64,000 nt of DNA from Candidatus Bathyarchaeia archaeon (GCA_050015395.1 JBEKBM010000015.1:689-64688), one strand, 5' to 3'; shown: positions 3,356 through 25,337, counted from the first letter of the stretch. The notes: generated from the sequence alone by a model not told the origin. Translations and numbers: made by a program.

Positions 3356-4210
3356 TTAGCTGTGAAATTGTATGTTCAAAATAGCTAATGAAGCCAAAAG
3401 CGCCTCTTCAGTCCTAACTGTCGCAGTACCCTGCTCAGGAATCATGTTTACAACAAAATCAACAATCGCCTCAAGCCTTGCGCCTTCCTCTTTGGCAATC
3501 TCATGCAAACCACGCGACGGAGCACCAAAAGCCACTAAAACATGCTGCGCGTCGCTCAATTTTTGCCCTATCTGACCTGCAACATCCAAGAATTTATCGC
3601 CAATCCTTGCAGTAGCAATAACCAAATCAAACCCGCCATCCCTCGCAAGTTGCCCAAAAGATCGTTTTTCCACACGAACCCTGAAACCCCAATAAAACGG
3701 AACGCTCTCACGATCTACAGTTTGAACTTCAACCCGTTCGCCCACTTTAACAACTTGTACCGTTAAGCGGTCACCGTCAGCGAACTGTTTTTCCCTCAAA
3801 AGTGCCGGCTGATCAACGCCAATGTCCACAAGCAAACCCTCTTTAGCTTGAGACAAAACCACTGCTTCACGGTACTCGCCAACCTTCAAATCCCGAGTTT
3901 TACCGCTCACAGGATGATGAGGCGTACGCAACGGAGGCAAAATCCCAGCAAATTGCAAGCTGGGCTCAAGTTTGAAGAGTCTTTTGCGAAGATACTGGGG
4001 CGTTTCCAAGTAACTTAGCAGCAACACGATAAAATCCAAGTCTCTTACCTGATTGGCTTTAGGGTTGTCTGGGTAAACTATGATTTCATCCACCCTGAAA
4101 ATCGCCGCTGCCCTTCCAATCAAGCCGATTTTTGATGTTTTCTCTCGCAAATGTGGCGTGTCAGAGATTACGGATGCTGGAATGGCGATTGCAAGTTTCT
4201 TTTTATCCAT
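3356..4210 (-). CDS. SPOUT-class RNA methyltransferase, DUF171/MTH1-like
   Basis: The N-terminus LAIAIPASVISDTPHLREKTSKIGLIGRAAAIFRVDEIIVYPD is typical of the archaeal DUF171 SPOUT family. The length (284 aa) and the central OB-like insert fit. Confidence 0.7.
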   Translation of the reverse strand: MDKKKLAIAIPASVISDTPHLREKTSKIGLIGRAAAIFRVDEIIVYPDNPKANQVRDLDFIVLLLSYLETPQYLRKRLFKLEPSLQFAGILPPLRTPHHPVSGKTRDLKVGEYREAVVLSQAKEGLLVDIGVDQPALLREKQFADGDRLTVQVVKVGERVEVQTVDRESVPFYWGFRVRVEKRSFGQLARDGGFDLVIATARIGDKFLDVAGQIGQKLSDAQHVLVAFGAPSRGLHEIAKEEGARLEAIVDFVVNMIPEQGTATVRTEEALLASLAILNIQFHS

Positions 4211-4309
4211 GACGCTTTCTGCTTCCTGCCGCTTGGTTAATGTGTGTCTGCGTTGAGCTTAAAAGTAGGGATGAGATATAAAAGTGCGGGTTATTGGAGG
4301 ATTCAAAAA

Positions 4310-5410
4310 ATGAAGACACCCATTTTAGATGAACCTGAAAAAATTAAAGCTATTGATAAGAGCAACATGATTAATTTTTGTTTGGACTCCGCTAAGCTTT
4401 ACGATAAAGCAGCTAAATTAGCTCAGAAAATCCAAGTAAACTACCCCAAACCAGACAACATTATTGTTAGTGGAATGGGTGGCTCGGGAATCGGCGGCGA
4501 CCTACTGAAGGATTGGGCTCGAAACAAAACAGATGTGCCGATTGAGGTTAACCGTGAATACCAACTTCCTGCATACGCTGGCAAGAGAACCCTAGTGTTA
4601 ATAACCAGCTACTCAGGCGACACAGAAGAATCCCTAGGCGCTTTTCTTGACGCACTAAAGCGGAAATGCATGATTTACTGCGTAAGCAGCGGCGGCGCCC
4701 TGCTGGAGAACGCTGAAAGGCTCAATGTACCGTATCTGCGTGTTCCGGGAGGTATGCCTCCTCGTGCAGCGCTTCCCTACCTGTTCGTTCCCCTGCTATT
4801 GTGCATGGAGAAAATGGGGTTGGTTTCAGGCGCCTCCGAAGAACTCTCTGAAGCCTTGACACTTCTTGAAAAAATCAGCAAGGATAACTCACCTGAGAAG
4901 CCAGCTAAAGAAAACTTTTCCAAAACCTTAGCTTTAGGCATCGGGCAGACCGCTCCTGTCGTTTATGGTTTTGGTTTTTACCGCAGTGTAGCTGAGCGGT
5001 TTAAGACGCAGTTCAATGAGAACAGTAAGATTCCTGCGAAATGGGAGGTTTTCTCAGAGCTTAACCATAACGAGATTGTGGGTTGGGAGAGGGCTGGTGA
5101 ACTCGGCAAATGCTTCTCTGCAATCTTCATCAGAGACAAAGAGGAGCCAACTGAAATTCGCAGCAGAATTGAAATCACAAAAGAGCTGGTGGGCAAAGCT
5201 GGCTTGGGAATGTTTGAAGTACCAGCTCAAGGCAAAAGCCCATTGGCAAAGATGCTATCGACCATTTGCATCGGCGACTTCACAAGCATCTACTTGGCAC
5301 TTCTGCACGGCGTAGACCCGACACCTGTAAAAACAATAAACTATCTAAAAGACACATTGAAAGAAAACGGCGTTAAAGAAAAAATAATAAGCGAATTGGC
5401 AAAGCTTTAG
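4310..5410 (+). CDS. bifunctional phosphoglucose/phosphomannose isomerase (SIS domain)
   Basis: SGMGGSGIGGDLL and ITSYSGDTEE SIS motifs. Length fits archaeal PGI/PMI. ATG at 4310 preceded by GGAGG; the track's GTG at 4244 is probably too far upstream. Confidence 0.8.
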   Translation: MKTPILDEPEKIKAIDKSNMINFCLDSAKLYDKAAKLAQKIQVNYPKPDNIIVSGMGGSGIGGDLLKDWARNKTDVPIEVNREYQLPAYAGKRTLVLITSYSGDTEESLGAFLDALKRKCMIYCVSSGGALLENAERLNVPYLRVPGGMPPRAALPYLFVPLLLCMEKMGLVSGASEELSEALTLLEKISKDNSPEKPAKENFSKTLALGIGQTAPVVYGFGFYRSVAERFKTQFNENSKIPAKWEVFSELNHNEIVGWERAGELGKCFSAIFIRDKEEPTEIRSRIEITKELVGKAGLGMFEVPAQGKSPLAKMLSTICIGDFTSIYLALLHGVDPTPVKTINYLKDTLKENGVKEKIISELAKL

Positions 5411-5425
5411 CTAACTTGAACGTTT

Positions 5426-6478
5426 TTAAGCTATGAACTTGGCAAATTCTTCTGCTGCAACCTCAAGCGATACCATTCGGGGTGGACGTTTAAATGCGTA
5501 AGCGCAAACTGGCTCAACGGCGCCATTAAGCTTCTTGTTCAACGCCAATTTCATTGCACGCACTATATCGAAGAGTACTGAGCCAGCGTTTGGCGCGTCA
5601 ACAGTTTGGAATTTGAGGTCAATCTTCATAGGTGCATTGCAGAAGTAGACGCCGCTTATCCAGAAGTAACTGTCACGCTTGTTCTGCAGGAAATCCACGT
5701 AATCCGTGGAGCCAGCCACAATCTCAGCCTTGTAAGGTATTGAAGCAGCCACTGACTCAGTTTTAATTTGGCGTTTAGCATCACGAGTGCGATCCAAAGT
5801 GTCAACAGATTCGGTTCCTCCACCAACATCAAGCTGATAAGTCTCATCTATCCTTACCCCATTATCTGAAAGCAACTTAAGCAACGTTTTGTGCAAAGCA
5901 GTTGAGCCCACCTGATCTACCAAGTCGTCGCCGACGAGCGGAAGCTTTGCATCAGCGAACCGTTTAGCCCACGCAGCATCGCTGGCAATGAAGTTCGGCG
6001 TTGCATTGACGAAAGCGCATCCTGCCGCTAGGGCTTGTTCAGCATACCATTGTGAAGCTTTTGAGGCTCCGCTTGGAAGTAAATTAACCATTACTTCAGC
6101 GCCCGCATCCTTAAGAACCTTAGCAACGTTCGAGTCGGGCGCACTGCTGACTTGAATAATAGCTTTAGTTGATTTTCCTACACCATCAAGCAATGGTCCC
6201 TTGTTAACTTTAACGCCTGTTGAAGGCACATCAGAGACCTGCGGCGCATTATTTGGATTAGCAAAAATGGCTTCTGAGAGGTCTTTTCCAACCTTGCGTT
6301 CAGCCACATCAAAAGCTGCGACCACCTCTATGTCTTTTGGGCTTAAACCTGCCAAAACTGGATTACGCAGTCCAATGCGATCTTCCGCTTTCTCAAGTTT
6401 CCCATAGTATTGTATGCCTTGGATGAAGGCTGAGGCGCAGTTTCCAACGCCGATTAATGCAACTTTTACTTTGGGCAT
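5426..6478 (-). CDS. ino1: myo-inositol-1-phosphate synthase (archaeal short form)
   Basis: N-terminal Rossmann motif KVALIGVGNCASAFIQGIQYY, and a size of about 350 aa, are characteristic of archaeal IPS. Confidence 0.85.
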   Translation of the reverse strand: MPKVKVALIGVGNCASAFIQGIQYYGKLEKAEDRIGLRNPVLAGLSPKDIEVVAAFDVAERKVGKDLSEAIFANPNNAPQVSDVPSTGVKVNKGPLLDGVGKSTKAIIQVSSAPDSNVAKVLKDAGAEVMVNLLPSGASKASQWYAEQALAAGCAFVNATPNFIASDAAWAKRFADAKLPLVGDDLVDQVGSTALHKTLLKLLSDNGVRIDETYQLDVGGGTESVDTLDRTRDAKRQIKTESVAASIPYKAEIVAGSTDYVDFLQNKRDSYFWISGVYFCNAPMKIDLKFQTVDAPNAGSVLFDIVRAMKLALNKKLNGAVEPVCAYAFKRPPRMVSLEVAAEEFAKFIA

Positions 6479-7053
6479 TCCATTTGCACCTTGCTTGGCT
6501 TTTCTATTTGCGTTTGCCTTATAAAAAGCTACGCCGCATTTTCTTGGGGTAGATTAGCTCTTATGCGATATTTGTCATAGATTTTTTAAATCAAACTTGT
6601 TTATTCGGTATTGACCTTTGATCAACCGGTTCTTTAAGCATCAACTTAGTTAAAAAAAAGTAAGCACAGAATTATTGCCGCTATACCGAGTTTTTAATCG
6701 TGCCCTGATGCCGTTCTGTTGTTAAATTGTTTGCCAAGATATTTCTTTTGTTTTGCTTCTGGAAGTTCGCTTCGTTGTCTTGCGTAGGTACTATTTTTTG
6801 TTTAGGAAAAATTTAATGGTGAAAAATGAGTTTTTAATATTTAGTGTTGGAGGGCTGGTTTTGTGTGTTGGCTACTCTCATTGCCATCCGTCATCGAGGA
6901 GAAAGGAGAAGGCTTCGAAAACGGAAAAACTCTTTTGGCTTGAGTGGTTTAGCCTTCAACCTTAACTAACCCTCCAATCACTAACAAGACTTGAGATACT
7001 GGTAAAATACTTAAAAGATTTGTGAATTAAAAATAAGGATTAAAAATATTAGC

Positions 7054-7608
7054 TTACCCTATCGCTAAAACGCCTTCCAAAATATTTGTTTCAGGAACAT
7101 CCAGTTGCTTAGACAACGACGCTTTCAGAATAGAAGAAAACTTTGGAAGTGCACCATTATAAGTGATAATTTGGTTACCCTTAAGCGCATCAGCTTGGAA
7201 AACCTTCTCATCTTCCTTATAGCTAAAAGACAACGTTTGAGCTCGGAAAGCTAAAGTTTGAAAATCTTCCCACTGCTTACAACGCAAAATCACGGAAGGC
7301 CCACCCTGAACCACCGGAACAGGTGAAGCTTGACTTGTTTGCTCCTTGACTGCTGCGGGAAGTGCTTCTTTTGGTGCGCTGCCTGACACGTAAGTGATCA
7401 AGTTTGTTACTTCTTTCTGCAGACTGTTTATTTTTTCTTCAACTTTTTCTACTTTACCGCTTAATTCGCCTGTATCTCCAAGTTGCTCGGTAACCGTTGC
7501 CAACTCATTAATCAATTTGTCCAGATCTCTCTCATGCTCTTTGAGAACGTTCACTATGAAATCTAAAGCCTCTAATGAATCATCCTTTGACTGTGGATTC
7601 TTTGTCAA
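7054..7608 (-). CDS. hypothetical coiled-coil protein
   Basis: 184-aa ORF. The N-terminal half has heptad-like, acidic sequence (LKEHERDLDKLINELATVTEQL...). No enzymatic motif. Confidence 0.6.
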   Translation of the reverse strand: MTKNPQSKDDSLEALDFIVNVLKEHERDLDKLINELATVTEQLGDTGELSGKVEKVEEKINSLQKEVTNLITYVSGSAPKEALPAAVKEQTSQASPVPVVQGGPSVILRCKQWEDFQTLAFRAQTLSFSYKEDEKVFQADALKGNQIITYNGALPKFSSILKASLSKQLDVPETNILEGVLAIG

Positions 7609-7730
7609 TCTATATATCCCCCATTACCTGCCAACTCATTATGAGGAAACTGTAAATAAAGATAGCGAATCCTCAAGTAATATCACAGTGAAGGCATACC
7701 TATAATTATTAAGAATCATTCTTTCTAATA

Positions 7731-7770
7731 TATGATGATTTACGATACTATATGACGGTTTACGATACTA
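7731..7770. repeat. 2 x 20-bp direct repeat (tatgaYgRtttacgatacta)
   Basis: tatgatgatttacgatacta at 7731-7750 and tatgacggtttacgatacta at 7751-7770, with two mismatches. Intergenic, about 120-160 bp upstream of the start of 7054..7608. Confidence 0.8.
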
Positions 7771-7876
7771 GCTAATTTGCCTTTCCTACACCTGCCACTA
7801 TAAATAAAGTAGCCTACTGCCACCAACTCCATGGTTATTCCGAGAACAATTCCATTTACAATTAAAAGTGGAAAGC

Positions 7877-15460: not shown

Positions 15461-15585
15461 GGGTTTGCCGGTCAAAGGGCACGGGTTCCACCTGATCCCA
15501 TTCCGAACTCAGAAGTTAAACCGTGTTCCGTTTCCAGCTGTAGTGTGGTCTTAGGCCATGCGAACCTGGGAAAGCTGGTAGCCCA
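15461..15585 (+). rRNA. 5S ribosomal RNA (orphan, not linked to 16S/23S in this window)
   Basis: Contains the universal 5S loop C/helix III string gatcccattccgaactcagaagttaaac. The ends gggtttgccgg... and ...gctggtagccc can pair as helix I with G-U pairs and one bulge. About 125 nt. Confidence 0.85.
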
Positions 15586-18230: not shown

Positions 18231-18791
18231 TTAGGGCTTGTAGATTTTTGGGTCAAGGATTGCAAAGTTGTTGCCGCCCGCGTGATAGAGCATCCTTGCC
18301 TTTTTCAGGTCATAGCTTTCCGTAAAGACGCCCATGTCTGCGTAGGCTTCAAGTATTTTGCCCACGAAAACCGTGTGGTCGCCTGTTGTAAATTTGCTGT
18401 CAACACTGCATTCCAGGTGGGCTATGCACTCGCGTATTGCTGGCGCCTTGACCTTTTTACCGGGCATCGGTGTCAGATTTGTTTTTTTGAATTTGTCAAA
18501 GCTTCTGCCCGTCAAGGAGCCGCATGCGTAGACGGCTTGCAGTGTCTCCAGTGTTGGAATATTCACAATGAATTCCCCTGACTCCTCAATTAGCGTGTGA
18601 GAGTGGCGGGTCGGCGCGAGGCTGATGGCTAAAAGCGGCGGGTTAATGGAGGTTGGCATAGCCCACGCGAGTGTTGTAATGTTTGGTTTGCCTGCTTTTC
18701 CACTACATGAAACCAAAACGGTGTGCATTGGGTGAAGAAGCCTATATGCCGAGGCAATGTTTACTTGAGTTTTTGCGGACACATAAATCAC
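18231..18791 (-). CDS. flavin reductase-like FMN-binding domain protein
   Basis: HTVLVSCSGKAGKPNITTLAWAMPTSINPPLLAISLAPTRHSHTLIEESGEFIVNIP is typical of the flavin reductase (DIM6/NTAB) family. Confidence 0.8.
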   Translation of the reverse strand: MIYVSAKTQVNIASAYRLLHPMHTVLVSCSGKAGKPNITTLAWAMPTSINPPLLAISLAPTRHSHTLIEESGEFIVNIPTLETLQAVYACGSLTGRSFDKFKKTNLTPMPGKKVKAPAIRECIAHLECSVDSKFTTGDHTVFVGKILEAYADMGVFTESYDLKKARMLYHAGGNNFAILDPKIYKP

Positions 18792-19360
18792 CTAATTGTA
18801 ATAACGTAATAGTGGTGAAGCACCGCACTTATTTCTTTTTTCTTTAGAGAAGTAACTGTTTTTTGCGTTTTATTTACGAAAGAGTTTTTATCTAAATTAC
18901 TTATTTACAGCAGAGAAATGGTGAGTTTATGGGCAGCATATTGATTGGTGCTTTCGCAGGTTTCATTGTAACCCTACTGTTAGGCGTACCTCTTGGTTTG
19001 TTGCTGCCTTTCGTGGGCGTCCTGATTGGTATGCTTGTCGGCGGGTTTGTTGCTGGAGTTCAGGGAGGACTTAGAACCGTTGCAGACCGCCATATTCCTT
19101 GTTGTTGCTGCAGAAGCCGCCGTGAACATGACGCTTGAATACCAAAATCTCCTATCGGGCAGAGGCTTAAGTAAAGATGATTACTTGCAACGTTCAGTCG
19201 CTTTAATGTTGCAAGGTATAGCTTCTAGCAACCTTAAAAAATGAAGCGCCTAAAAGTCAAGTTTACAGTGGGTTTGGCGGTTTATCAACATTTTTTATAC
19301 TGTTCTTTCTCGGGAGCTGTCAGTAATCATAAATTTGATGCGGGAGATTGCTGGCGTTTT

Positions 19361-19520
19361 TTTTACTCTTAGGGTTTCCTTCAAGTCATTGTATTGGGTG
19401 TCGATTTGCTTTTTTTGCGCCTTTAACGTTTCCTGTTCTTTTTTACTCTTAGGGTTTCCTTCAAGTCATTGTATTGGGTGTCGATTTGCTTTTTTTGCGC
19501 CTTTAACGTTTCCTGTTCTT
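19361..19520. repeat. exact 2 x 80-bp tandem duplication spanning the 3' end of the 588-aa gene
   Basis: 19361-19440 is identical to 19441-19520 (ttttactcttagggtttccttcaagtcattgtattgggtgtcgatttgctttttttgcgcctttaacgtttcctgttctt). Confidence 0.95.
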
Positions 19521-21189
19521 TTTGTTGTCGTTCTTCAAAGAATTTTTCCCTTTTTCCCTCAGCTATTTTCAGTAGCGTGTTTACGGTGGTGAGGACTTTA
19601 GTGTAGTGAGATTCTGGTATTAATTCCCCATTTCTTTTCTCCCAGTCAAGGTAGGATGTTACGTAATCTTTAACTGTTGATATCAATGCTTGTTCAGTTT
19701 CTTGATAATGTTCCGGAGAGTCTTTAAGGTTTTCTAACTTTTCTTGCAGTTTGACAAGAACTTCTTGCAGGAAAAGGACGCCTTTTGATAACATTTCAAG
19801 ATGGGCGATTCCATCCGATTGTTGTAATTTAACAACCTTGCGGCTGAAGTCCTCGACTTCTTTTTCCGCTTTATCGAAGCTTACAGCTTGGCTTATTAAC
19901 AGAGCCTTTGTCTCTACTCCTTTTGAAGTGTAGAAGTCTATGTCAGCCATAATTCCCTGTACGTCAGTTTGAGTAATGAGTGCATCAATCACCTTGCTGG
20001 ACCCCCAATACCCTGAAATATCGTTCGATGACATTTGTGTTCTGGTTGTTATTGCTTCTTTTAATTTGTTATTAGAAACTTTTATGTTTCGCAAAACATC
20101 CCCAGAATAGTTTGCAAGGCATTTGGATACTTCATTTGTTGAGATATCAAGCGCATTAACTGAGTTTCTGTCCAGGAACGGACAATTCAACTTAAAGTTT
20201 TCTTCGTATTCGTTCAGGTTTAAATCTATGTTTTTTAAGTCCTGGGGGATTGGTAGTTGTTTATTAGCGACCTCTTGAATCAAGTTAGCAAGATTAGAGC
20301 GATTTTTTTCTTGGTTGATTTTTATTTGTGGTCTTTCAGTCGAGTATTTTTTTATGAATTTTTTTAATAATTCCTCGATTTCACCTAAATCTATATTATC
20401 GATGATAGCAAGGTTTACAGATGTGGGAAACGTTATTTTCTCGGCAATTACATACGCCAAAAACCGCTCGACAAGGTCCTCTTGATTTTCTGAACGCAGC
20501 TGAAAGACGTATTTGGGGGGTTCAGGGTCCATCTGAGGTTTTGAGGGTTGACCGTATATTATTACGATGTTTTCTCGGTATTCTTCATCCAACGGTGTCA
20601 AGATAGCTGAGAATGACCATCTTATAACATTGGGGCTGAGCATTAAGTTGTTTAAATCGTTCAGTCCCTCTTCGAGTGTTGTCACGTACTTCTTGATTTT
20701 GCTCCCTCTGTAACCTACGCATTCTTGAAGTACATCGTACTCAGAAACGTTATTTTCGATTGTTTCGTTTGTTTCAACAGTCACTTTTTGAGGAGTAAGA
20801 TTCAAGTCTGTTTGGCTCTTTGAGAATATTTCTTGATAGTTAGTGCCGTTTTCTTTGAAGAACTTTTCAAAGTTCATACTGTATTTGAAGGCGTCGGATA
20901 GGTTGATCGCGAAGTATTGGAGGAATGGAACCAGAATGGTTTCCCTTCCCGGCTGCTTTGAACGAACTATCTCTCCGCTTCCGAATACTTGTTTGTTGCC
21001 CAGATGCGTTTTAACTGGGTACACAAAATAGAATTTTTGGCCTGGTTGAAGTAAATATGAGTATTTTTGCGCGCTTAATAATTCAGCTATGTGGTTATCT
21101 GCATCGAGTTCTGATGGGCGGGTGTCCCCCGAAATTAGGTATTTGTAGCCGCTGGTTGAATGAAAGTTTATTCCTTGTATGAACTCCAT
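19423..21189 (-). CDS. uncharacterised ~588-aa protein with a long C-terminal coiled-coil, last gene of the GTPase operon
   Basis: The track ORF 19423..21219 starts at a GTG. The ATG at 21189 (MEFIQGINF...) overlaps the TAA of the upstream reading frame (TAATG), so it is the more likely start. No catalytic motif recognised. The C-terminal ~200 aa are heptad-rich (LQEVLVKLQEKLENLKD..., EERQQKEQETLKAQKKQIDTQYNDLKETL). Confidence 0.75.
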   Translation of the reverse strand: MEFIQGINFHSTSGYKYLISGDTRPSELDADNHIAELLSAQKYSYLLQPGQKFYFVYPVKTHLGNKQVFGSGEIVRSKQPGRETILVPFLQYFAINLSDAFKYSMNFEKFFKENGTNYQEIFSKSQTDLNLTPQKVTVETNETIENNVSEYDVLQECVGYRGSKIKKYVTTLEEGLNDLNNLMLSPNVIRWSFSAILTPLDEEYRENIVIIYGQPSKPQMDPEPPKYVFQLRSENQEDLVERFLAYVIAEKITFPTSVNLAIIDNIDLGEIEELLKKFIKKYSTERPQIKINQEKNRSNLANLIQEVANKQLPIPQDLKNIDLNLNEYEENFKLNCPFLDRNSVNALDISTNEVSKCLANYSGDVLRNIKVSNNKLKEAITTRTQMSSNDISGYWGSSKVIDALITQTDVQGIMADIDFYTSKGVETKALLISQAVSFDKAEKEVEDFSRKVVKLQQSDGIAHLEMLSKGVLFLQEVLVKLQEKLENLKDSPEHYQETEQALISTVKDYVTSYLDWEKRNGELIPESHYTKVLTTVNTLLKIAEGKREKFFEERQQKEQETLKAQKKQIDTQYNDLKETLRVKKNRKR

Positions 21190-22179
21190 TATTCCACTCC
21201 GAATGTATCTCTTAACCACTCTAATAGGCGCACGTACTCTTGCCCGTTGTATTCAACTATCTTTATGTGCTTACGGTTATTTGTATATAGTGTACTTTGG
21301 ACAGCCATCTCTATCTATTTCTTCCTTTAATTTGGAGTAAAAAATTTTGAAAACCGTTCCATCACGCTTGCCAAAACGTAAAATATAATCGTATACTTTG
21401 GGAAGATGTTTTTCAGCAATTTCTTGTAGTTGCGTATCACTTGGATTTTCATAGCCTGGCAACATGAACTTATCATATTTAGAAAATAACAATGCTATGC
21501 CTCTTAGATTTCGTCCATGTGCGATGGCGTACTGATTAAATGTATCAAGATACGATGCTAAAGCAATGTCAGGGGATTCTCGTTGAGCTAATAGGCTGGA
21601 ATCTGCCACTAGAATTATCCCTTTTGCTGTGAGCACATTGTTGGTTAAATACTCGGCGTCTTCTTGTTGTAAACCAGCCTCTAGCAATTTCTGTTTAACT
21701 TGATCTGGACTCAACAAAAATTAATTCTGGGAATACCTTAATTAGCGTACTAGTAGTCTGTCCGCTCATATCTGCGAAAATTAGTCTAATGCTCCTTTTT
21801 GACATCAAGAATCGTTGTTTAAATTCTATGTTCAATTGGACTTTTGTATCCTTGTCACTGTTAGAAGAAAAAATGGAGCTCTTCCATCCAATACGAGGTT
21901 ATATGCCTCGTGATATAGGTCGAATCCTTGAGCTCTTACAAAAGGCGTGTAGATGCATTTGAACTCGTCTCAATAATTAACCAAAGTTTGGTAGAGTAAA
22001 ATTAGGCTTGTTGTTTTTCCAGACGACCGAGGTCCTATAAAGATGACGGTTGCTGCTGTATCATGTCTATTATCTCTGTTACCTTGTGCGCTACTGCTCA
22101 TTTTTGGGTCGCTCTTTTCTTTGGTTAGAGGGTATCCTTCATTATACGGCGAACGCTGGTCTGGAATGTAAGTGCCCAA
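21189..22179 (-). pseudogene. decayed paralogue of the P-loop GTPase-like gene 22231..23148
   Basis: Pieces in three frames align colinearly with the intact neighbour: VIFIGPRSSGKTTSLILLYQTLVNY, then TGA, then DEFKCIYTP...; LNIEFKQ...IRLIFADMSGQTTSTLIKVFPEL; LSPDQVKQKLLEAGLQQEDAEYL...IALLFSKYDKF...; TNNRKHIKIVEYNGQEYVRLLEWLRDTFGVE, then stop. That is one in-frame TGA (21970-21972) and at least 3 frameshifts, two at homopolymer runs (21868-21873 and 21716-21720). Confidence 0.8.
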
Positions 22180-22230
22180 GTTAGGGGTTCTTTGAACCCT
22201 GTTTGAATTAGGGCCAGATCCTTTGGTTAA

Positions 22231-23148
22231 CTATTCACCAAAGGTGTCTCTAAGCCATTCGATAAGTTGCCGGTATTGTTGTACGCTGTATTCAACCCTG
22301 TTTTGGTGGCGCGCATTGTTGGTATTCACTACAAAAAGGCGCCCACCTTCAGCATCGTCTTGTGGCTTCAATACGGAATAGAAAATCTTGAATAGTGTTT
22401 TGTTATTTTTAGTGAAATTTGACGCATAATTTTCAGTTTGACACAGGTAGTTCTTTGCCAGTTCTCTTAATTTTTCAGCCTTTGGGTTGCCGTAGCCAGG
22501 AACAGAAAACTGGTCAAATTTCGTTAGTAACAAGGCAAACCCTTTTGGTGCTTCACCGTGCATTTCTGCATACTGATAAAGGTTGTTTAGGTATTTCGCT
22601 AACTCAGGGTCTGGAGACTCTGGGGTCCCAAGTTTACTCGCGTCTGCGACTAGGATTACTCCTTTTGATGAAAGCAGCGTATGTACTAAGTAATCGACAT
22701 CTTCTTGGTTTATGTTAGCCTCTTCGAGTTGTTCTCGAACCTTTTGTGGGCTTGAGTTGATGAGGGTTGGAAAAACTTTCATTAATGTTTTGCTGATTTC
22801 TCCGCTCATATCGGCAAAGAGCAGTTTGACCTTTTTCTTTTTGTGTATAATGCCGCCGTCGAATTCGATGTTGAATTCAATTCTTGCGTCTTTTTTGCTT
22901 GGCGGCGTCGGTGTAACTGAAATTCCATTGAGTATGAGGTTGTTTGTTTCTACAAACAGGTCTAGTGCGTCGTTTTTAATCGATGGAGTGTAAGTACATT
23001 TTAAATCGTCTCGGTAATCTATGAGTGTTTGGTGAAGTAAAACTATGCCCGTGGTTTTTCCTGACTTTGATGGTCCGACGAAGATGACGCCTGCACCTTC
23101 CCCTTCGTTATCTTTATTATCTTTACTTATTGGTACTTTAGTGCTCAT
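22231..23148 (-). CDS. P-loop NTPase with GTPase-type motifs, uncharacterised family
   Basis: G1 GPSKSGKT; G3-like LLFADMSGE (DxxG); G4-like LLLTKFD ([NT]KxD). 305 aa, with unusually long G1-G3 and G3-G4 spacers. Confidence 0.75.
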   Translation of the reverse strand: MSTKVPISKDNKDNEGEGAGVIFVGPSKSGKTTGIVLLHQTLIDYRDDLKCTYTPSIKNDALDLFVETNNLILNGISVTPTPPSKKDARIEFNIEFDGGIIHKKKKVKLLFADMSGEISKTLMKVFPTLINSSPQKVREQLEEANINQEDVDYLVHTLLSSKGVILVADASKLGTPESPDPELAKYLNNLYQYAEMHGEAPKGFALLLTKFDQFSVPGYGNPKAEKLRELAKNYLCQTENYASNFTKNNKTLFKIFYSVLKPQDDAEGGRLFVVNTNNARHQNRVEYSVQQYRQLIEWLRDTFGE

Positions 23149-23197
23149 TTGTCCCCCTTAACCTCCTCCTCTAACAAGTCTTGTATAGTCAGGTTTT

Positions 23198-23265
23198 TGG
23201 ATATAAGATTATCGTATTAGCGCTAACCTGATGGATATAAGATTATCGTATTAGCGCTAACCTGA
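23198..23265. repeat. exact 2 x 34-bp tandem repeat 50 bp upstream of the GTPase operon start
   Basis: tggatataagattatcgtattagcgctaacctga at 23198-23231 and again at 23232-23265. Confidence 0.95.
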
Positions 23266-23331
23266 AAGAGCATTTGAGAGCTAAAAAAATTCATGTTTAC
23301 TCATGTGGGCTATCATTTGCAACGGTCTGTG

Positions 23332-24438
23332 TTAGCGTTTTATGTGGTATTGTTCGATTACGTCTTTGGCCTTTTCCCGTCGTTCCCTGTGCTGTTCGAG
23401 GAACTTGTTGAGTTTTTCTGCTATGTCTTTTTTGCATTCGCCGCATAGCATTTCGCCTGCGCGGCATTTACGTTCACGTTCCGAGAGCTTCCCAGAATCC
23501 TCTTCGAAAAGGTAGAAGTAGTATTGGAAGATGCTGCAGACTGTTGGGTCAGCCCCTGTTTTTCGTTGTTCTGCGGCTGTGCCTTTGCCTCCTGTGAAAG
23601 CGTTCCAAATCTTCTTCTTCACCACGTCGGGTGGGTCAATGGTGAATATGCTGGTTTCGGGCATGCTGGCGCTCATTTTTCCGCCTGCGCCGAGCCCAGG
23701 TAGGAAGCGGCAGTGGATCTGCGCGGGCTTATAATAGCCGAGTTTTTGGGCTATATCGCGTGTCACTCTCCAGTAGGGGTCTTGGTCGATGGCTGCGGGG
23801 ATGAGGGCTGGGACATTTTCGCCTGTGAGTTTTTTGTGGATGAAGCATGGTGCGGCTTGGATGGCTGGCCAGAATACCCAGCCGATGTTGGTGCTGTCTT
23901 GGAAGCCAAAGCTGCTGCGGGCGGTGCTGTAAGTGATGCGTTTGGCTACTTCAAGTGTAATGTCGTACAGTAAATCGATATCTTCGGTGTCATAAATGAT
24001 GAAAGTGTTCTCTGGTTTGAATCCCAGCGCTATGAGATCTAGGGCGTTTTCATATGCGTATTTGCGCGTTTCTTTCAGGTTGGCGTCGTCATCTATGAGG
24101 TATTTTTCGTCGTCTGTTAGCTGGAAGTATAATCGCGTATTGAATTTTTGTTGAATGTGAAGCGTGAAAATCCATGGAACGAGGTGCCCGATATGCACGG
24201 GACCAGATGGTCCCCTGCCAGTGTAAAGGACGAATTTTATGCCTTTATCGTAAAGATCCAGAACAGTGTCTAGGTCACGGTGGCTGAAGAATATTTTTCT
24301 TTCAAGTTGAACGTGCAGTTTGCCTGTGTCTTTTTCCATTTTCTCAAGAAGTTGGGTGGTTAATGGTTGGGTGCCGAATTCGCGTATTAAACGTTCGTAG
24401 TCTAATTTGCCTTTTACTTCCCAAGGTGTGACTACCAT
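23332..24438 (-). CDS. trpS: tryptophanyl-tRNA synthetase (archaeal/eukaryal type)
   Basis: N-terminus VTPWEVKGKLDYERLIREFGTQPL, HIGH-like PVHIGHLVPW and a KMSAS motif. 368 aa. Confidence 0.9.
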   Translation of the reverse strand: MVVTPWEVKGKLDYERLIREFGTQPLTTQLLEKMEKDTGKLHVQLERKIFFSHRDLDTVLDLYDKGIKFVLYTGRGPSGPVHIGHLVPWIFTLHIQQKFNTRLYFQLTDDEKYLIDDDANLKETRKYAYENALDLIALGFKPENTFIIYDTEDIDLLYDITLEVAKRITYSTARSSFGFQDSTNIGWVFWPAIQAAPCFIHKKLTGENVPALIPAAIDQDPYWRVTRDIAQKLGYYKPAQIHCRFLPGLGAGGKMSASMPETSIFTIDPPDVVKKKIWNAFTGGKGTAAEQRKTGADPTVCSIFQYYFYLFEEDSGKLSERERKCRAGEMLCGECKKDIAEKLNKFLEQHRERREKAKDVIEQYHIKR

Positions 24439-24636: not shown

Positions 24637-24870
24637 ATGCAAGAAAGTCGAGTGGGTTCCAAAGGAGAGCTATTTCCTCCCAAGGAAATGAGAGAAAAAC
24701 TAGGGCTTAAAGCTTCCACTAAGGTAATATTCACAATCGAATCAGGAAGACTTATCGTTGAGCCTGTTCCCACCATAAAAGAACTTATTGAGGCAGGCAC
24801 AACCATTGAAATAACTCTGGATGAATTTCATAAGGACAGAAAAGAGCTCTCCAGGCTGGCTGAGGCTTGA
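24637..24870 (+). CDS. vapB: AbrB/SpoVT-family antitoxin (VapB-like)
   Basis: VGSKGELFPPKEMREKLGLKASTKVIFTIESGRLIVEP is a swapped-hairpin AbrB-type motif. It overlaps the downstream PIN gene by 4 nt. Confidence 0.75.
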   Translation: MQESRVGSKGELFPPKEMREKLGLKASTKVIFTIESGRLIVEPVPTIKELIEAGTTIEITLDEFHKDRKELSRLAEA

Positions 24871-25337
24871 AACTTCTACTGGATACAACATATCTTCTTC
24901 CAAGCGTAAGCATTGCTATCAAAGAAGTTTCTAAAGACGCAATAATCAAGCTAAACACGAAAGGGTATAATATAGTCGTTAGCCGAATAAGCATTTTCGA
25001 ACTTTTAGCAAAAAGCTCTAAATTCGTTGTCAAAAATGAGCTTTCGCCCGAAAGAGCAGCGCTCGGCATAAGAGCGATACTTTATGACGATATTATTGAA
25101 AAAATATCAACTGACAGTAGCAAAGTCATGTTAACAGCGTTCAAACTACGAAGCTTGATGAATGACTTTATCGATTGTCTCATAATTTCAACTGCTCTCA
25201 ACAACTGTGATGCCTTAATAACAGAGAACCAAGACATTCACAACCTAAAGAAAAACAAGAAATACCTCGAACTAGTAGCAAGTATAAACCCAAACTTCAA
25301 AATCCAAACTTTAGCCCAAATTTGCAGCCAGCAATAA
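24867..25337 (+). CDS. vapC: PIN-domain toxin (VapC-like)
   Basis: N-terminal LLLDTTYLL (first acidic residue). C-terminal FIDCLIISTALNNCDALITENQD is the typical PIN pattern. Confidence 0.75.
   Translation: MKLLLDTTYLLPSVSIAIKEVSKDAIIKLNTKGYNIVVSRISIFELLAKSSKFVVKNELSPERAALGIRAILYDDIIEKISTDSSKVMLTAFKLRSLMNDFIDCLIISTALNNCDALITENQDIHNLKKNKKYLELVASINPNFKIQTLAQICSQQ

Follow-up and report, generated by a model that had tools for sequence, protein, structure and literature searches.

What kind of system is encoded by two paralogous GTPase genes and the gene of a large protein with no recognisable motif, when they stand together between housekeeping genes of an archaeon? We addressed this question in a stretch of 64,000 nucleotides from Candidatus Bathyarchaeia archaeon (GCA_050015395.1 JBEKBM010000015.1:689-64688), hereafter called the window. 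On its minus strand, the interval from the TrpRS gene (23332-24438) to the flavin reductase gene (18231-18791) holds an intact GTPase gene (G1), the remnant of a second one (G2) and the gene of a 588-aa protein (Big). We consider, at a probability of about one half, that they represent a rare, horizontally mobile cassette with G1 and Big as its working unit, most likely a GTP-switched module of the conflict type. This reading is built on the GTPase fold and motifs of G1, its remote homology to DO-GTPases, the linkage of the GTPase with Big, the decay of G2, the rarity and mobility of the cassette, its location in a variable hotspot, unequal rates of evolution and purifying selection on G1. The parts of the locus are as follows:

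22231-23148, minus strand: G1, intact open reading frame (ORF) of 305 aa, TRAFAC GTPase, divergent member of the DO-GTPase superfamily
22102-22230, minus strand: spacer between G1 and G2, kept even where a lineage has deleted G2
21189-22101, minus strand: G2, pseudogene of a paralogous GTPase, conceptual product of 303 aa
19423-21189, minus strand: Big, whole gene, 588 aa, ATG at 21189-21187
20545-21189, minus strand: N-terminal domain of Big (residues 1-215), conserved alpha/beta, family-defining
19423-20484, minus strand: residues 236-588 of Big with the stop codon, predicted all-helical, fast-evolving
23198-23265: exact tandem duplication, two copies of 34 bp, upstream (promoter) region of G1
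19359-19518: exact tandem duplication, two copies of 80 bp, across the 3' end of Big

The GTPase and its partner protein

The initial annotation, made from the window alone, had described the G1 product as a GTPase-like protein with unusually long spacers between its motifs, and both points hold. The ORF is intact and contains GPSKSGKT (residues 25-32), PT81xP, FADMSGE (D113MSGE117), LLLTKFD (T209KFD212) and FYS258; K31 is separated from D113 by 82 aa, and D113 from T209 by 96 aa. Alignment of 12 family members reveals that GPxxSGKT, PTxP, DxxG, TKFD and FYS are invariant, and glutamate occupies the position of E117 in 10 of the 12. An AlphaFold2 model based on the same number of sequences (mean predicted local distance difference test, pLDDT, 77; predicted template modelling score, pTM, 0.81) displays a Rossmann-like GTPase core with two large inserts. 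When the model was compared with PDB using Foldseek, only GTPases were retrieved above noise: SRbeta (with the SRX longin), LokiRagO, Galpha, septin (rank 7, template modelling (TM) score 0.35) and EF-Tu. Since all TM-scores (0.34-0.47) are below 0.5, G1 has no close structural relative and the matches represent the generic GTPase fold. The protein is soluble, with neither a transmembrane segment nor a zinc ribbon.

At first no family could be named for either protein. This is no longer true for the GTPase, a distant member of the DO-GTPase superfamily (PF19993/PF19975), while Big is still an orphan. In Pfam, G1 reaches 24.7 bits with DO-GTPase2 (PF19993) and 20.2 bits with DO-GTPase1 (PF19975), where the cut-off is 27. 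All 12 family members match DO-GTPase2 (E<=0.01, best E 3.5e-9) and nine of them match DO-GTPase1. Further, locus L004 encodes a 288-aa protein that is a bona fide DO-GTPase1 (35 bits, above the cut-off of 27); labels of this type, and those of proteins such as P0013, denote the contexts of family members and TrpRS relatives that were compared. Aligned to this protein by hhalign, the G family gives a probability of 94.3% (E 1e-7, 214 columns), with GxxSGKT, PTxP, DMSGEI and TKxD in common. The link at the family level is firm as judged by sequence, and G1 is a distant, divergent member of the superfamily. DO-GTPases were defined by Kaur, Burroughs, Iyer and Aravind (2020, eLife; PMC7159879) as TRAFAC GTPases with a conserved Walker B glutamate; E117 of the DMSGE motif is a candidate equivalent of this residue.

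The start codon of Big (21189-21187) is preceded 7 nt upstream by a Shine-Dalgarno-like GGAGTG. The alignment extends the conserved N-terminal domain of Big to ~215 aa, in place of the ~120 aa originally assigned to it. Using the profile of this domain as HMMER query against 1.84 billion representative proteins, we retrieved 12 hits; 11 are real, and the twelfth, a spurious Ig-repeat protein, was rejected. H10, S20, G50, N65, G72, R82, K166, P186, W191, P199 and D201 are invariant across the 11 proteins. Structure prediction, which the initial annotation had proposed for both proteins, was confident for G1 but not for the N-terminal domain of Big (residues 1-235 in an AlphaFold2 model from six sequences, pLDDT 27-59). 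In the same model residues ~235-588 are all-helical, with pLDDT of 70-94 over ~260-400. The C-terminal ~200 aa had been taken for coiled-coil; heptad-like windows are indeed present, but only at ~430-491, whereas helices are predicted for the whole of ~235-588. The last 62 residues (527-588) would form a highly charged terminal helix, 42% of them being K, R, D or E. Big has no transmembrane segment (hydropathy maximum 1.25) and is soluble like G1.

Foldseek search with the Big model yielded generic helical matches only (designed helical repeats, 14-3-3) and was uninformative. Predicted elements of residues 1-126 follow the order beta-beta-alpha-beta-beta-beta-alpha-alpha, which is compatible with a longin domain as read from a low-confidence model (pLDDT 30-58) and the sequence pattern. 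Big matched nothing in Pfam, which includes GAP1-N1, -N2, -M and -C models, nor in NCBIfam, PADLOC, PHROGs or PDB sequences. Its profile is also dissimilar to the 665-aa protein encoded next to the L004 DO-GTPase1 (hhalign probability 0.1%). Big is therefore best described, on sequence grounds, as an orphan family with no detectable homology to GAP1, and its N-terminal domain is presumed to dock or regulate the GTPase.

Decay and loss of the second GTPase

G2 is a nearly full-length paralogue of G1 with the motifs GPRSSGKT, FADMSGQ and SKYD, whose reading frame is broken over ~1 kb. Its decay had been recognised before and is borne out by tblastn and three-frame translation, which revealed an in-frame TGA (21970-21972) and three frameshifts (near 21868-21880, 21712-21722 and 21283-21292). 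Since the TGA site matches Arg45 of G1, the stop arose by a CGA to TGA substitution. The 52 nt first given as the distance between the two genes lead from the G1 stop to a TTG that only marks where the ORF begins to be open; the homologous ATG (22101) lies 129 nt after this stop. The TAA of G2 (21191-21189) overlaps the Big ATG as TAATG, exactly as annotated. Translational coupling of all three genes, on the other hand, was not upheld: G1 and G2 are separated by a gap, and the overlap of G2 with Big stands behind a dead gene.

An independent contig assembled by the Joint Genome Institute (JGI; L011) is 99.2% identical to the window over G1 and up to window position 21593. It contains the TGA and the first two frameshift sites, ends before the third site and carries an extra 5-bp and an extra 1-bp indel of its own in G2, while its G1 differs from that of the window by six substitutions and no indel. 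As the lesions are shared by an independent contig, they are real and not assembly errors.

We wondered if G2 is preserved in related loci. In L007/L008, N- and C-terminal pieces of G2 remain, and these have the G2-specific motifs EF.C.YTP..RAQG, KRDGT and QEYVRL in common with the window copy. L009 and L010 retain only the spacer and the first G2 codons, and L003 has apparently kept a short 5' piece, as judged by eye. The gap between G1 and Big in L009 is 74.6% identical to window 22211-22092. Since G2 remnants occur in every locus of the Bathyarchaeia clade, the ancestor of this clade had the organization G1-G2-Big. Identity of reconstructed G2 to the G1s of the main clade is 44-48% throughout, and the latter are 54-85% identical to window G1. 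In a neighbour-joining tree the G2 branch is placed with 34% bootstrap, and the tree does not date the G1/G2 duplication.

Remnants of G2 in the window and L007 are 62-73% identical at the DNA level, while G1 has reached saturation at synonymous sites between the two. This would mean that G2 was under selection for long and was inactivated independently and recently in each lineage, a suggestion weakened by similar conservation of the non-coding spacer. The three-gene arrangement, initially taken as one operon, is not the functional unit. Other clades have a single GTPase with Big, and no Bathyarchaeia copy sampled has preserved the second GTPase, which is a pseudogene in the window and deleted to varying degree in sister lineages. 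The series of a full-length pseudogene, an internally deleted copy and a bare gene start constitutes a clean natural record of passage from a paired- to a single-GTPase system.

A residual ORF over the C-terminal end of G2 runs up to the Big start (39 codons in the window, 21189-21308). The matching ORF in L007 (1611-1802) has 63 codons and was called as a gene. By its position, it may have been kept to serve Big as a leader or as context for ribosome binding.

Distribution, mobility and rates of evolution

In every context with enough sequence, the GTPase gene is followed by Big. The family is rare: 13 clusters of G were detected among 5.8 billion, and 6 clusters of Big at 90% identity, to which a second word-indexed search with the Big alignment added none; the N-terminal domain profile defines 11 Big members among the 1.84 billion representatives. 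A motif scan of 185,579 species-representative genomes detected no family member. IMG/VR and PLSDB yielded no relatives, and plasmid tblastn was negative for G1 and for bona fide DO-GTPase1. Viral origin was considered and rejected, the sole IMG/VR hit being a spurious match to a DnaC-like P-loop in a high-GC phage.

Three types of organization were observed. L001, L092 and L002 have a single GTPase gene whose stop overlaps the start of Big. In L003, L007/L008, L009, L010 and a 15-kb JGI contig the order is TrpRS, G1 and Big as in the window; flavin reductase follows Big in the TrpRS-linked loci wherever the contig reaches that far. The third type is an operon of five genes that adjoin tightly or overlap (L004 2615-10717; also L005 and L006). 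It encodes, in this order, an 838-aa protein of immunoglobulin-like (Ig-like) Big_6/Flg_new_2 repeats, DO-GTPase1, the 665-aa protein (C-terminal hydrophobic segments, no GAP1 hit), a G-family member with an N-terminal extension of 130 aa and a Big-family member. A G-family member (P0013) thus shares one operon with DO-GTPase1 and an Ig-like repeat protein, and this operon may represent the system in a composite or ancestral state.

That the cassette moves as a unit is apparent from comparison of L001 with L092. Their only common block (2.79 kb, 84.7% identity) extends from ~100 nt upstream of the GTPase ATG through the end of Big and has unrelated flanks. As nothing else is shared, the moving unit consists of promoter, GTPase and Big. 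The window and L011 provide a second case: cassette G1 and G2 (21593-23231) are 99.2% identical and the 3' part of TrpRS (23232-24024) 95.1%. This step in identity suggests that recombination or transfer occurred recently and that its breakpoint lies at the edge of the cassette. No repeats resembling ends of a mobile element were found flanking the locus; the two tandem duplications are unrelated sequences and were rejected in this role.

The accessory character proposed for the locus was well founded. TrpRS of the window is up to 97% identical to that of metagenome-assembled genomes of peat and soil Bathyarchaeia, and the 80 Bathyarchaeia species representatives closest to it (TrpRS 86-97% identical) all lack G and Big within 10 kb of TrpRS. 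Length of the interval from TrpRS to flavin reductase varies from 20 nt to ~10 kb across relatives, and in the closest cassette-less ones it carries toxin-antitoxin pairs (PIN/VapC, MazE-PIN and MNT-HepT). In eight loci (L042 11303-15033; L044, L047, L051, L052, L073, L078 and L086), this hotspot holds a conserved coupled pair of genes, encoding a DUF3417/phosphorylase-like protein of ~725 aa and a triple-PAS protein of ~514 aa. The pair (725 + 514 aa) had been a candidate for a fused analogue of the cassette and was rejected on account of this composition. Likewise, a CBS-domain gene found downstream of Big in three loci was rejected as part of the cassette. It belongs to the backbone of the region, as does a small hydrophobic ORF at window 18929-19138 (plus strand). 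The latter ORF, next to the flavin reductase gene, encodes 69 aa, glycine-rich and very hydrophobic; it is conserved in at least nine related Bathyarchaeia genomes and is probably a real small membrane protein. On the far side of TrpRS (24637-25337, plus strand), translations reveal an AbrB/MazE-like antitoxin and a PIN-like toxin, a putative VapBC pair. As such a pair is found in some relatives only (L013, L024), both sides of TrpRS are variable.

Next we compared rates of evolution. Nonsynonymous divergence (dN) between the window and L003 is as follows:

TrpRS: dN 0.086
flavin reductase: dN 0.12
G1: dN 0.30
Big, N-terminal domain: dN 0.24
Big, C-terminal region: dN 0.73

As ranges, dN is 0.62-0.73 in the C-terminal region of Big and 0.17-0.27 in its N-terminal domain. 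The C-terminal part is the fastest-diverging region and evolves at ~8 times the rate of the flanking genes. The ratio of dN to synonymous divergence (dS) in G1 is 0.04-0.06 where dS is unsaturated, which indicates a constrained, functional gene, though one that still evolves several-fold faster than its housekeeping flanks.

Both tandem duplications noticed earlier exist as two exact copies each (Tandem Repeats Finder and a repeat finder, 100% identity for the 34-bp repeat), but the 80-bp one does not frame the operon and spans the stop codon of Big. Read on the minus strand, both 34-bp units include a TATA-like CTTATATCC, ~50 nt before the start codon of G1. To judge by its sequence and position, CTTATATCC is possibly a TATA element, in which case the duplication would have created two tandem promoters. 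L011 has a single copy of the unit in an otherwise near-identical strain, so the duplication is polymorphic. It doubles the most conserved piece of the G1 upstream region, a 27-nt core of which is 92.6% conserved in L009; matches to this upstream region are confined to cassette-bearing loci. At the other end, the 80-bp duplication shifts the reading frame of Big after ...RVKK, and NRKR-stop replaces a predicted tail of 24 aa. Orthologues end in a basic stretch followed by a short hydrophobic/aromatic tail, which is gone in the window copy. The 598-aa product of Big read from a GTG is 100% identical to protein P0014 of a JGI metagenome contig. Other window genes adjoining the cassette are intact.

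Two further observations concern neighbouring genes. The sole Rfam match in the window is a 5S rRNA gene (15464-15583, plus strand). In L001, a contig of 337 kb, three genes (3806-7816; 233, 891 and 194 aa, the second with a faint HerA_C hit) diverge from the cassette and could represent another system based on a nucleoside triphosphatase (NTPase).

A proposed GTP-switched module and its relation to known systems

How might the two proteins work? Big is normally encoded directly downstream of the GTPase, with overlapping stop and start codons. We propose a GTP-dependent switch function for G1, either on its own or, since the loss of G2, as a homodimer. The alpha/beta domain of Big would dock on G1 or regulate it, with the invariant R82, K166 and D201 as candidate contact or catalytic residues. 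Nucleotide state would then set the conformation or self-assembly of the long, diversifying helical region, the presumable sensing or output part. A role in biological conflict, of the anti-virus or abortive-infection type, appears more plausible than housekeeping by analogy with DO-GTPase-GAP1 systems and from the genomic behaviour of the cassette. A physical interaction of G1 with Big, the passage from switch to assembly and the conflict role are inferred.

Several observations weigh against the conflict module. DO-GTPase-GAP1 conflict systems are themselves computational predictions (PMC7159879), and our literature search for experimental work on DO-GTPase systems found none. G1 is below the Pfam gathering cut-off (24.7 vs 27 bits). 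Domain scans detected no effector-type domain in G1, Big or adjacent genes, and 17 Big-family proteins gave no GAP1 hit when compared with Pfam by hmmscan at E up to 0.1-1. In PADLOC-DB v2, Big matches no defence model, and the G family matches mad8 only, marginally (6 of 12 members, E 0.005-0.007, ~14 bits). Docking of G1 is predicted for a domain that was itself modelled with low confidence (pLDDT 27-59). Cargo of the hotspot in other relatives is metabolic or regulatory, namely the phosphorylase-like and PAS pair, or TetR with FMN reductase. Finally, the window copy is possibly impaired, because G2 is dead and the tail of Big is altered by the frameshifting duplication. The mad8 match had also been followed as a lead to MADS and was dropped, given its ~14 bits and a mad8 paper without domain information.

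In a more specific form, which we put forward tentatively, the GTPase and Big would constitute a self-contained, previously undescribed GTP-switched two-component system, distinct from DO-GTPase-GAP1. The N-terminal domain of Big might then have a new fold, perhaps similar to longin, that regulates the GTPase or couples it to an effector; R82 would be its catalytic or contact arginine. The helical region would serve as both sensor and output, for example by GTP-controlled self-assembly on virus infection in Bathyarchaeia.

Alternatively, Big could be a very divergent GAP1 and the locus an ordinary, reduced DO-GTPase-GAP1 system. Its gene order is that described for such systems, one or two paralogous DO-GTPase-like genes followed by a large, multi-part partner with constant N-terminal and variable C-terminal parts (PMC7159879). 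G1 is remotely homologous to DO-GTPases, and one relative has DO-GTPase1 next to it, together with a protein of beta-sandwich repeats reminiscent of the FNIII component in GAP1-N2 systems. However, none of the 17 Big-family proteins hits GAP1, and the Big profile is unlike the 665-aa partner of DO-GTPase1. In the window, GASH, FNIII and effectors are all missing, and the GTPase has neither a zinc ribbon nor a transmembrane segment. We consider this explanation unlikely.

A switch without conflict function is likewise rather improbable. Here a small GTPase with a helical scaffold would serve in membrane, cytoskeletal or regulatory processes, as do SRbeta-SRX, Rag-Roadblock and MglA-MglB. Both proteins are soluble, toxin-like or effector domains are absent, the top Foldseek matches of G1 are SRbeta with its SRX longin domain and an Asgard Rag-like GTPase, and the predicted element order of Big residues 1-126 resembles longin topology. 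On the contrary, TM-scores below 0.5 reflect the generic GTPase fold and the longin reading comes from a model with pLDDT of 30-58. Moreover, extreme rarity, patchiness, mobility, absence in closest relatives and fast evolution are unusual for a cell-biological machine.

It is still less probable that the copy in this genome is a relic in decay that no longer has a function. Signs of decay are that G2 is still gaining indels between strains, that the native tail of Big was lost through the 80-bp duplication, that Big is no longer coupled to a live upstream gene and that most relatives have lost the cassette. Nevertheless, the ORFs of G1 and Big are full-length and have kept every residue that is invariant in the family, G1 carries no disabling change relative to the 99%-identical strain, the Shine-Dalgarno-like GGAGTG precedes the Big ATG, and single-GTPase versions elsewhere are under purifying selection. 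That G2 only appears to be a pseudogene through assembly or sequencing errors (two of its three frameshifts lie in T5-T6 runs) or recoding, and that a heterodimeric GTPase pair is functional, is effectively excluded by the lesions shared with L011 and the indels added there, by the TGA being a substitution and no homopolymer error, by large G2 deletions in sister lineages and by intact neighbouring genes.

Returning to the proposed GTP-switched conflict module, we compared it with known systems. Dynamin-like LeoA/Eleos, septin/GIMAP-like and GBP-type defence GTPases similarly couple a GTPase to possibly assembling helical regions, and the cassette behaves in genomes as conflict systems do. Unlike in these, the cassette has its GTPase and its helical part on different proteins; PADLOC gives no match of this kind and septin is only a weak Foldseek hit. 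Pairs of a GTPase with a longin or roadblock partner (SRbeta-SRX, Rag/Gtr-Roadblock, MglA-MglB, LokiRagO) provide the best structural matches of G1, and here too the GTPase gene adjoins that of a partner whose N-terminal alpha/beta domain could, tentatively, be a docking platform. They differ in that TM-scores reach 0.34-0.47 only, G1 has two large inserts, the partner has 588 aa with a long helical region and an N-terminal domain modelled at low confidence, and the cassette is accessory and mobile, in contrast to conserved cellular machinery.

Closest are the DO-GTPase-GAP1 "GTPase-centric" conflict systems, in which two paralogous GTPase genes occur in 38% of cases, followed by the large partner GAP1, with GASH or an FNIII-repeat protein as third component and with effectors that vary (PMC7159879). 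This agrees with the initial annotation, which had likened the arrangement to heterodimeric GTPase switches and NTPase-based conflict systems. In the cassette, the GTPase is likewise a TRAFAC protein with DxxGE Walker B, TKxD and PTxP switch-I motifs and with homology detectable at the family level. Its ancestor in the Bathyarchaeia clade had two paralogous GTPase genes, of which the second is now decayed or deleted, and other clades have a single one. The large partner, constant at its N-terminus and variable at its C-terminus, is encoded directly downstream. Distribution is mobile and patchy, and one relative shares an operon with DO-GTPase1 and a beta-sandwich repeat protein. Differences are that the window GTPase scores under the Pfam cut-off, that GAP1-N, -M and -C domains are not detectable in Big, that the interval between TrpRS and flavin reductase holds no GASH/FNIII component, and that the cassette has no zinc ribbon, transmembrane segment or effector genes. 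Its minimal unit is two genes, and its host is an archaeon of the Bathyarchaeia, as opposed to the mostly bacterial hosts of described systems.

This kind of system had already been defined computationally. What is new is that the partner is an orphan family, that the minimal form has two genes, that the host is an archaeon and that loss of the paired GTPase could be documented. Among the predicted classes of NTP-dependent conflict systems, that of the DO-GTPases is one of the large ones, and the cassette extends the superfamily into Bathyarchaeia, abundant and uncultured archaea whose virus defence is poorly known. With two soluble proteins and neither membrane parts nor accessory effectors, it may provide a tractable entry point to the function of the DO-GTPase switch.

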